Under the pieces are notes generated by a model. It was not told the origin of the DNA, searched no databases, and saw only the letters and a list, made by a program, of their open reading frames with translations. Shown here in pieces: positions 43,083 to 43,441 of a stretch of DNA of 64,000 nucleotides (position 1 is its first letter; every line of letters starts with the position of its first letter). Source of the DNA: Escherichia coli (GTDB taxonomy: Bacteria; Pseudomonadota; Gammaproteobacteria; Enterobacterales; Enterobacteriaceae); assembly GCF_003334255.1 (NCBI RefSeq), contig NZ_QOWU01000004.1. One strand, 5' to 3'. The position numbers and the translations under genes were made by a program.

Positions 43083-43265
43083 GTTATCCCCTCTTTTGTA
43101 GATTGCCCGATGCGACGCTAAAGCGTCATTTCGGGCCTACGTTGAACATGTGCCAGACGTTGGCGCAGCATTGCTTTGTCAAATCCTCGGTTCGTTTCCC
43201 CGCGATAATATGACCAACCTCTCATAATTTAAATTTACCCCGCTCTGGTGATTCTCAAACGCCAG

Positions 43266-43281
43266 ATGTTACCCGTATCAT
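43266..43281 (+). promoter_or_regulatory. GntR operator (upstream of gntT)
   Basis: ATGTTA-CCCG-TATCAT resembles the GntR operator consensus ATGTTA-N4-TAACAT. Confidence 0.6.
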
Positions 43282-43406
43282 TCACATGGGTACCAAACAT
43301 ACTCCTGACATCTGACTACAATAATTAGTTTTAGTGGGTATCAGTCGTGGTGCCGCAATATCTCTGTTCCCGATTGGGATAATTAGAGTTTGTCGTCAGA
43401 AAATTG

Positions 43407-43422
43407 ACGTTACCCATAACAA
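43407..43422 (+). promoter_or_regulatory. Second GntR operator-like site upstream of gntT
   Basis: acGTTA-CCCA-TAACAa, 20 nt upstream of the gntT ATG. Confidence 0.5.
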
Positions 43423-43441
43423 ATGAAAGGCCAGGTAAATC

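Follow-up and report, generated by a model that had tools for sequence, protein, structure and literature searches.

In the gal system, the dimeric LacI-family repressor GalR, which has no tetramerisation tail, acts from two operators, OE and OI, that bracket the transcription start, the second of them lying beyond +1, and the promoter is under CRP control; the gal loop of about 113 bp depends on helical phase and requires HU at its apex. In the lac system (O1/O2/O3), a main promoter operator is combined with an auxiliary downstream operator, and LacI is a tetramer assembled via a C-terminal helix. At purB, PurR, a dimeric LacI-family repressor, stops the elongating polymerase as a roadblock; its only operator is situated within the coding region, far beyond the start site, and has no promoter-proximal counterpart. 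Roadblocks by dimeric LacI-family proteins are usually weak. The gntKU promoter (Izu et al., 1997; Tsunedomi et al., 2003a) and the GntR regulog (PMC4052901) share with the gntT locus considered here the repressor, the half-site motif, and the presence of two operators per promoter. The E. coli gntK operators, ATGTTACCGATAACAG and CAGTTACCCGTAACAT, overlap, with centers 13 bp apart (L083:5845-5875), whereas the operators of gntT in Enterobacteriaceae are situated about 141 bp apart, the second one in the leader. The overlapping operator pair is the typical layout of GntR regulons in gamma-Proteobacteria (Ravcheev et al., 2014, PMC4052901), and the split layout at gntT of Enterobacteriaceae is a less common variant of this known theme.

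The closest described system is the gntT promoter of E. coli K-12 (Porco et al., 1997; Peekhaus and Conway, 1998), which has the same locus and the same sequences as the window analyzed here (a stretch of 64,000 nucleotides of an E. coli chromosome), without any difference: both have a pair of GntR operators and a CRP site, and gluconate is the inducer. A passage in Frunzke et al. credits Peekhaus and Conway (1998) with the demonstration of GntR binding to the gntT promoter and of its inhibition by gluconate, and cites CRP activation of the gnt genes. One preprint, following Peekhaus and Conway (1998), lists two GntR binding sites and one CRP site for gntTp. In another preprint, devoted to a cell-free biosensor, the promoter-proximal operator of the window serves, letter for letter, as the GntR operator of E. 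coli, and repression by GntR, relieved by gluconate, was obtained in the cell-free system. In vivo, PgntT is repressed more than 5-fold by GntR, according to a 2026 paper. The sites and the repressor, as well as the inducer and the CRP input, were described in 1997-1998 and now serve as synthetic-biology parts, so that the identification carries little weight as a discovery; the two-operator reading of the gntT promoter is correct and already known, and the only additions made here are a cross-genus footprint and an analysis of operator spacing. Peekhaus and Conway are also said to have mapped the start site in 1998, to have placed CRP at -71, and to have reported that full repression needs both operators, a DNA loop (cooperative action) reportedly being suggested. 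A search of the secondary literature on gntT returned no usable statement on looping or on a roadblock at this gene.

The region of interest, positions 43083-43441 of the window, fills exactly the gap between the stop codon of nfuA (ORF 42507-43082) and the ATG of gntT (ORF 43442-44758), and hence is the nfuA-gntT intergenic region; malQ is convergent and lies downstream of gntT. Many E. coli chromosomes contain this interval with 100% identity, their flanking genes being annotated as nfuA and gntT, and it was found in 5425 of 5426 complete E. coli genomes. In one genome with the 100% identical region, the annotation places gntR at a distance of about 30 kb; the gene is located outside the 64-kb window. 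The stretch 43097-43167, right after the nfuA stop codon, contains a REP-type element (GCCCGATGCGACGCTAAAGCGTCATTTCGGGCCTAC) with a partial, sub-threshold Rfam match to naRNA4 (27.5 bits); a terminator-like hairpin at 43149-43167 comes after it. The REP/hairpin stretch (43097-43167) is the most variable part of the intergenic region between E. coli alleles. The features discussed below are collected in Table 1.

Table 1. Predicted regulatory elements and coding sequence at the gntT locus, in window coordinates.
Feature	Position	Strand	Remarks
CRP-like site TATGAccaaccTCTCA	43209..43224	+	2 mismatches to TGTGA-N6-TCACA; center at about -71.5, class I position
-35 hexamer TTCTCA	43252..43257	+	promoter scan; mean identity 0.90
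GntR operator O1, ATGTTACCCGTATCAT	43266..43281	.	about -22 to -7; right half is the -10 hexamer
-10 hexamer TATCAT	43276..43281	+	inside O1; promoter scan
Predicted gntT leader, 154 nt	43288..43441	+	from the predicted start at about 43288
GntR operator O2, ACGTTACCCATAACAA	43407..43422	.	about +120 to +135; center about 27 nt before the ATG; core 43409-43421
Likely Shine-Dalgarno AGG	43433..43435	+	6 nt before the ATG; read from the sequence
gntT coding sequence	43442..44758	+	438 aa, high-affinity gluconate transporter; annotated gntT, WP_001131758.1

Two palindromes upstream of gntT had been proposed, from the letters of the sequence, to resemble the GntR operator, and both are present: ATGTTACCCGTATCAT, here called O1, at exactly the predicted position, and O2, whose predicted interval 43407-43422 is the 16-mer ACGTTACCCATAACAA, enclosing the core GTTACCCATAACA at 43409-43421. 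The predicted distance of about 20 nt between O2 and the gntT start codon is also accurate when counted from the core, which is separated from the ATG by 20 bases (43422-43441). Both sites are located directly upstream of gntT, a gluconate-utilization gene, within one 156-bp stretch, and their centers are 141 bp apart. The curated 14-nt GntR consensus TGTTACCCATAACA (RegulonDB/PRODORIC, as quoted in PMC2811016) is matched by O1 at 12 of 14 positions and by O2 at 13 of 14 positions; in addition, O1 agrees with ATGTTA-N4-TAACAT at 11 of the 12 fixed positions (15 of 16 dyad positions). A GntR consensus ATGTTACCCGTAACAT is likewise quoted in the literature. The resemblance to the GntR operator is thus upheld by the consensus matches, by the highest conservation in the region (see below), and by agreement with the literature. 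Both palindromes are GntR operators of gntT that have already been described, and what they represent is ordinary, well-studied regulation. As a positive control, the case is useful: reading of the sequence alone located two genuine operators at the right coordinates.

With at most two mismatches allowed, the consensus TGTTACCCATAACA has three matches in the 64-kb window against 0.19 expected, a count reached in none of 100 shuffles, and two of the three are O1 and O2. The third one, TGTTACCCATCAGA at 36034-36047 on the minus strand, is situated inside a 773-aa ORF (34268-36589); both its mismatches fall into the right half-site, leaving only the left half-site and the spacer in agreement. It is probably a chance occurrence and was treated as such.

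The promoter scan yielded a sole promoter-like site on the plus strand of the region, TTCTCA-18-TATCAT, whose TATCAT is taken as the -10 hexamer in the cell-free biosensor preprint too. O1 has one break in its dyad symmetry, TAaCAT to TAtCAT, and on our reading of the sequence it is this very break that creates a 5/6 match to TATAAT. Since the -10 hexamer lies inside O1, O1 is the main switch, a point absent from the original prediction. The promoter geometry leads us to infer that transcription starts 7 nt past the -10 hexamer, at about 43288. The center of the CRP-like site (43216.5) is then at -71.5, in agreement with a class I arrangement, in which CRP is centered near -61.5, -71.5, or -82.5 upstream of a sigma-70 promoter. 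In the alignment of 31 Enterobacteriaceae sequences, 8 of the 16 columns of this site do not vary (TGAC, TC.CA). Downstream of it and ahead of the -35 hexamer, the window contains an invariant A.ATTT (TAAATTT, 43232-43239, approximately -56 to -49), possibly an UP-element or a contact of the alpha-CTD next to CRP. An FNR ChIP-seq peak at gntT has been listed together with peaks at promoters whose activation by CRP is known (PMC3688515), which suggests that FNR can occupy the region of the CRP-like site of gntT.

Counted from the predicted start, O2 is centered at about +127.5 in the leader; it follows the only conserved promoter-like site at a distance of about 126 nt and would lie inside the transcribed region, downstream of the only promoter. 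The claim that O2 belongs to the leader rather than to a promoter was borne out, the scan having found no promoter-like site near it. The accompanying claim that O2 overlaps the ribosome-binding region has to be dropped: the 16-mer ends at 43422, and the likely Shine-Dalgarno sequence AGG (43433-43435) comes 10 nt later. The ribosome-binding site is in any event irrelevant to a repressor whose target is double-stranded DNA.

To obtain the cross-genus footprint, one genome per species was scanned, which resulted in 80 loci with gntT homologues. Thirty of these either retain the nfuA-gntT(-malQ) synteny or have too little flanking DNA for the synteny to be checked; they come from Escherichia, Salmonella, Citrobacter, Enterobacter, Klebsiella, Kluyvera, Kosakonia, Lelliottia, Trabulsiella, Phytobacter, Pluralibacter, Pseudescherichia, and other genera. 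The alignment comprises 31 distinct syntenic Enterobacteriaceae sequences. O1 is unchanged in all 30 of these loci, with 16 of 16 columns invariant in the alignment, and O2 has a mean identity of 0.98, with 11 of the 13 core positions invariant. These are the two most conserved 16-nt windows within 43196-43441 in the 31 sequences, while the overall identity of that interval is 0.72 and the middle of the leader (43290-43400) has an identity of 0.62 and 0 invariant columns out of 111. The islands of conservation coincide exactly with the CRP-like site, the -35 hexamer, O1 with the -10 hexamer, O2, and the block from the Shine-Dalgarno sequence to the ATG (43426-43441, mean identity 0.94). Since the operators stay intact while the neighboring DNA drifts at an approximately neutral rate, O1 and O2 are under purifying selection.

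In the syntenic loci, O2 has the form A(C/A)GTTACCCATAACA(A/T), and in Pseudescherichia it is GCGTTACCCATAACAT. Its position relative to the ATG is -27 or -26 in all 29 syntenic loci that retain it. In a Pseudocitrobacter metagenome-assembled genome (L022), about 27 nt upstream of the gntT ATG at position 572, O2 has a 1-nt deletion (GTTACCCAT-ATAA) with O1 intact, which is either a real loss or an error of metagenome assembly. The block 43306-43322 of the early leader (approximately +19 to +35) is moderately conserved, with a mean identity of 0.78; it reads ATAACAGCCAGCTAAAC in Citrobacter and Enterobacter and contains a short dyad, TAGCCAGCTA, in Klebsiella and Kluyvera, whereas the E. coli block has diverged to TGACATCTGACTACAAT.

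Within E. coli, about 920 of the 5426 complete genomes (e.g., ST131) carry an intergenic allele whose identity with the window is only approximately 84.5%. The NfuA and GntT proteins of two E. coli O25b:H4 ST131 loci (L082 and L084) are identical to those of the window, and in the ST131-type allele both operators, the CRP-like site, and the -35 hexamer are all unchanged. We considered whether this hyper-divergence is an anomaly and rejected the idea: sliding identity is 77-79% in the unconstrained intergenic stretches and 93-99% in the flanking coding DNA, and as the drop is limited to unconstrained stretches at an approximately neutral rate for the locus, it calls for no special explanation. 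The intergenic region of E. albertii resembles the ST131 type.

Beyond the syntenic set, a different arrangement of the same operators is observed. The gntT homologues from outside Enterobacteriaceae proper, among them those of Pantoea, Erwinia, Mixta, Yersinia, Serratia, Dickeya, Rahnella, Sodalis, Brenneria, and Pragia, are non-syntenic; they have two operators that overlap by 2 nt, with a center-to-center distance of 14 bp, and lack an operator close to the ATG. In Dickeya undicola, the pair forms a perfect 30-bp palindrome, ATGTTACCGGTATCATGATACCGGTAACAT (L060:1814-1843), and gntR is located just upstream of the Dickeya gntT homologue. The overlapping pair is also present in loci L059, L062, L064, L065, and L069 and, with one or two changes, in loci of Yersinia, Serratia, Rahnella, and Pantoea. 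A split pair was observed upstream of the gntT homologue of Gilliamella sp. from the bee-gut Orbaceae (L079, upstream of position 2001), with ATGTTAATTATATCAT at -147 and ATGTTACCGATAACAC at -35 from the ATG; the promoter-plus-leader layout may have arisen there independently. The GntT homologues of Firmicutes (L078, L080, L081) have no such operators upstream, as expected with a different regulator.

Taken as a whole, these data make us highly confident that gntT has a sigma-70 promoter under two-operator control by GntR and CRP, a judgment that does not extend to the way in which O2 acts. The sites, their consensus match, their conservation, and the promoter geometry come from the present analysis, and GntR binding, gluconate induction, CRP activation, and the number of sites come from the literature; neither sequence, comparative, nor literature data provided evidence against this architecture. 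The scheme of this known regulatory region is as follows. The promoter TTCTCA-18-TATCAT is activated by cAMP-CRP from the class I site at about -71.5, and GntR, the gluconate repressor of the LacI family, represses it through O1 and O2. O1 covers the spacer and the -10 hexamer, and hence a GntR dimer bound to it should exclude RNA polymerase and serve as the main switch, for which the synthetic promoter of the cell-free biosensor preprint provides functional support. O2, about 141 bp downstream of O1 and at about +127.5 in the leader, would strengthen repression, and gluconate, by binding GntR, would release it from both operators. As for the manner of this strengthening, a second GntR dimer on O2 may independently block the few polymerases that escape O1. 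We favor such an independent downstream roadblock over a loop and give it an even chance of being right; the idea, which had been part of the original prediction, is plausible and unproven, and the comparative data lean mildly toward it.

Several other explanations of the second palindrome have to be weighed. A trivial one, that the palindromes are functionless chance matches, could appeal to the loose dyad ATGTTA-N4-TAACAT, which at up to two mismatches is not rare in the 64-kb window (4 matches vs. 1.57 expected, 9 of 100 shuffles reaching 4) and so is non-significant on its own. It is hardly credible in view of the excess of full-consensus matches and of the functional literature on the gntT operators, and it is refuted by the retention of both sites across genera next to neutrally drifting DNA. 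O2 might instead be conserved for a reason acting at the RNA level (the structure of the leader, enhancement of translation, or targeting by an sRNA next to the Shine-Dalgarno sequence), the palindrome being incidental and no GntR site at all. Its contiguity with the conserved block 43426-43441 and its fixed distance from the ATG fit this, but the conserved block coincides with the dyad and matches the GntR consensus at all but one position, and the literature assigns two GntR sites to gntTp. Moreover, the predicted fold of the leader RNA is no better than that of shuffles (z = -1.36), and an Rfam search at a permissive threshold gave no leader family, only the partial REP-type match outside the leader. 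An RNA element in the gntT leader was ruled out on these two grounds, and we regard a purely RNA-level role of O2 as very improbable. Nor is there much to recommend the proposal that O2 is the operator of a second, leader-internal promoter. TTGACG at 43404-43409 does resemble a -35 hexamer, but 16-18 bp downstream, where a -10 hexamer is due, one finds AAGGCC, which is not acceptable; the transcript from there would lack the Shine-Dalgarno sequence; and a second promoter at O2 was ruled out by its absence from the promoter scan. This proposal, like that of chance, deserves next to no credence.

The serious competitor is a DNA loop, in which GntR dimers on O1 and O2 touch, looping out about 141 bp, so that occupancy of O1 is stabilized and the promoter trapped, while O2 has little effect of its own on elongation. 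The operators flank the start site, the distance between them (141 bp; 65-147 bp in relatives) is in the usual range of the lac and gal loops, and a loop is, as already said, what was reportedly proposed in 1998. Most spacings fall into a narrow band: of the 30 class A sequences that have both operators, 28 are within 133-147 bp. Pairs of overlapping GntR sites 13-14 bp apart are frequent, which hints at dimer-dimer contacts; since GntR dimers tolerate or use close contact at such sites, contacts able to bridge a loop are conceivable. On the other side stand the spacings themselves, which take nine distinct values (65, 133, 136, 139, 140, 141, 143, 144, and 147 bp) and span all helical phases, while the position of O2 relative to the ATG stays fixed. 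In Rayleigh tests with periods of 10-11.3 bp, no helical phasing was detected (R 0.07-0.21, p 0.66-0.96), the power being low with nine values. Such spacings should be incompatible with a rigid loop of about 140 bp, and therefore the lack of phasing provides mild support for an independent block. In Pseudescherichia, where about 76 nt of the leader are missing, the spacing is just 65 bp and both operators are nevertheless retained. The two loci concerned are those of Escherichia sp. ESNIH1 and Pseudescherichia vulneris (L051 and L052, upstream of position 2001), where the Shine-Dalgarno block is kept as well; this natural deletion variant is useful for testing a loop against a roadblock.

The structure of the repressor bears on the choice too. 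The alignment of GntR (331 aa) to LacI stops at LacI residue 316, and thus GntR, unlike the tetrameric LacI, lacks the C-terminal tetramerisation helix, which again mildly supports an independent block over a loop. However, GalR loops without a LacI-type tail, and for this reason the missing tail of GntR is weak evidence. The likeness of gntT to gal extends to a dimeric repressor of the same family, to operators that bracket the start, and to CRP control; it ends at the spacing, which is unphased at gntT, and at the would-be apex, where the leader has no conserved element for an architectural protein. With lac, gntT shares the repressor family and the combination of a main promoter operator with an auxiliary downstream one. 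In its O2, a site of a dimeric LacI-family repressor well downstream of the start, gntT resembles purB, but it also has O1 on the -10 hexamer. On balance, looping at gntT seems to us possible rather than probable, and the small share of probability that is left falls to both mechanisms acting together or to neither of them.

An extended version of the roadblock reading, somewhat less than evenly likely in our estimate, is that O2 would be a phase-independent, self-sufficient roadblock just ahead of the ribosome-binding site, and that the split O1...O2 layout may be derived from the tandem overlapping pair seen at gntK and at the gntR-linked gntT homologues of Dickeya, Yersinia, Serratia, and Pantoea. 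The prediction that follows from the cross-genus data is that the effect of O2 is independent of helical phase, and its outcome would decide between a roadblock and a loop for a dimeric repressor of the LacI family. If true, a phase-independent roadblock at O2 would revise the looping model that is reported for the gntT promoter.
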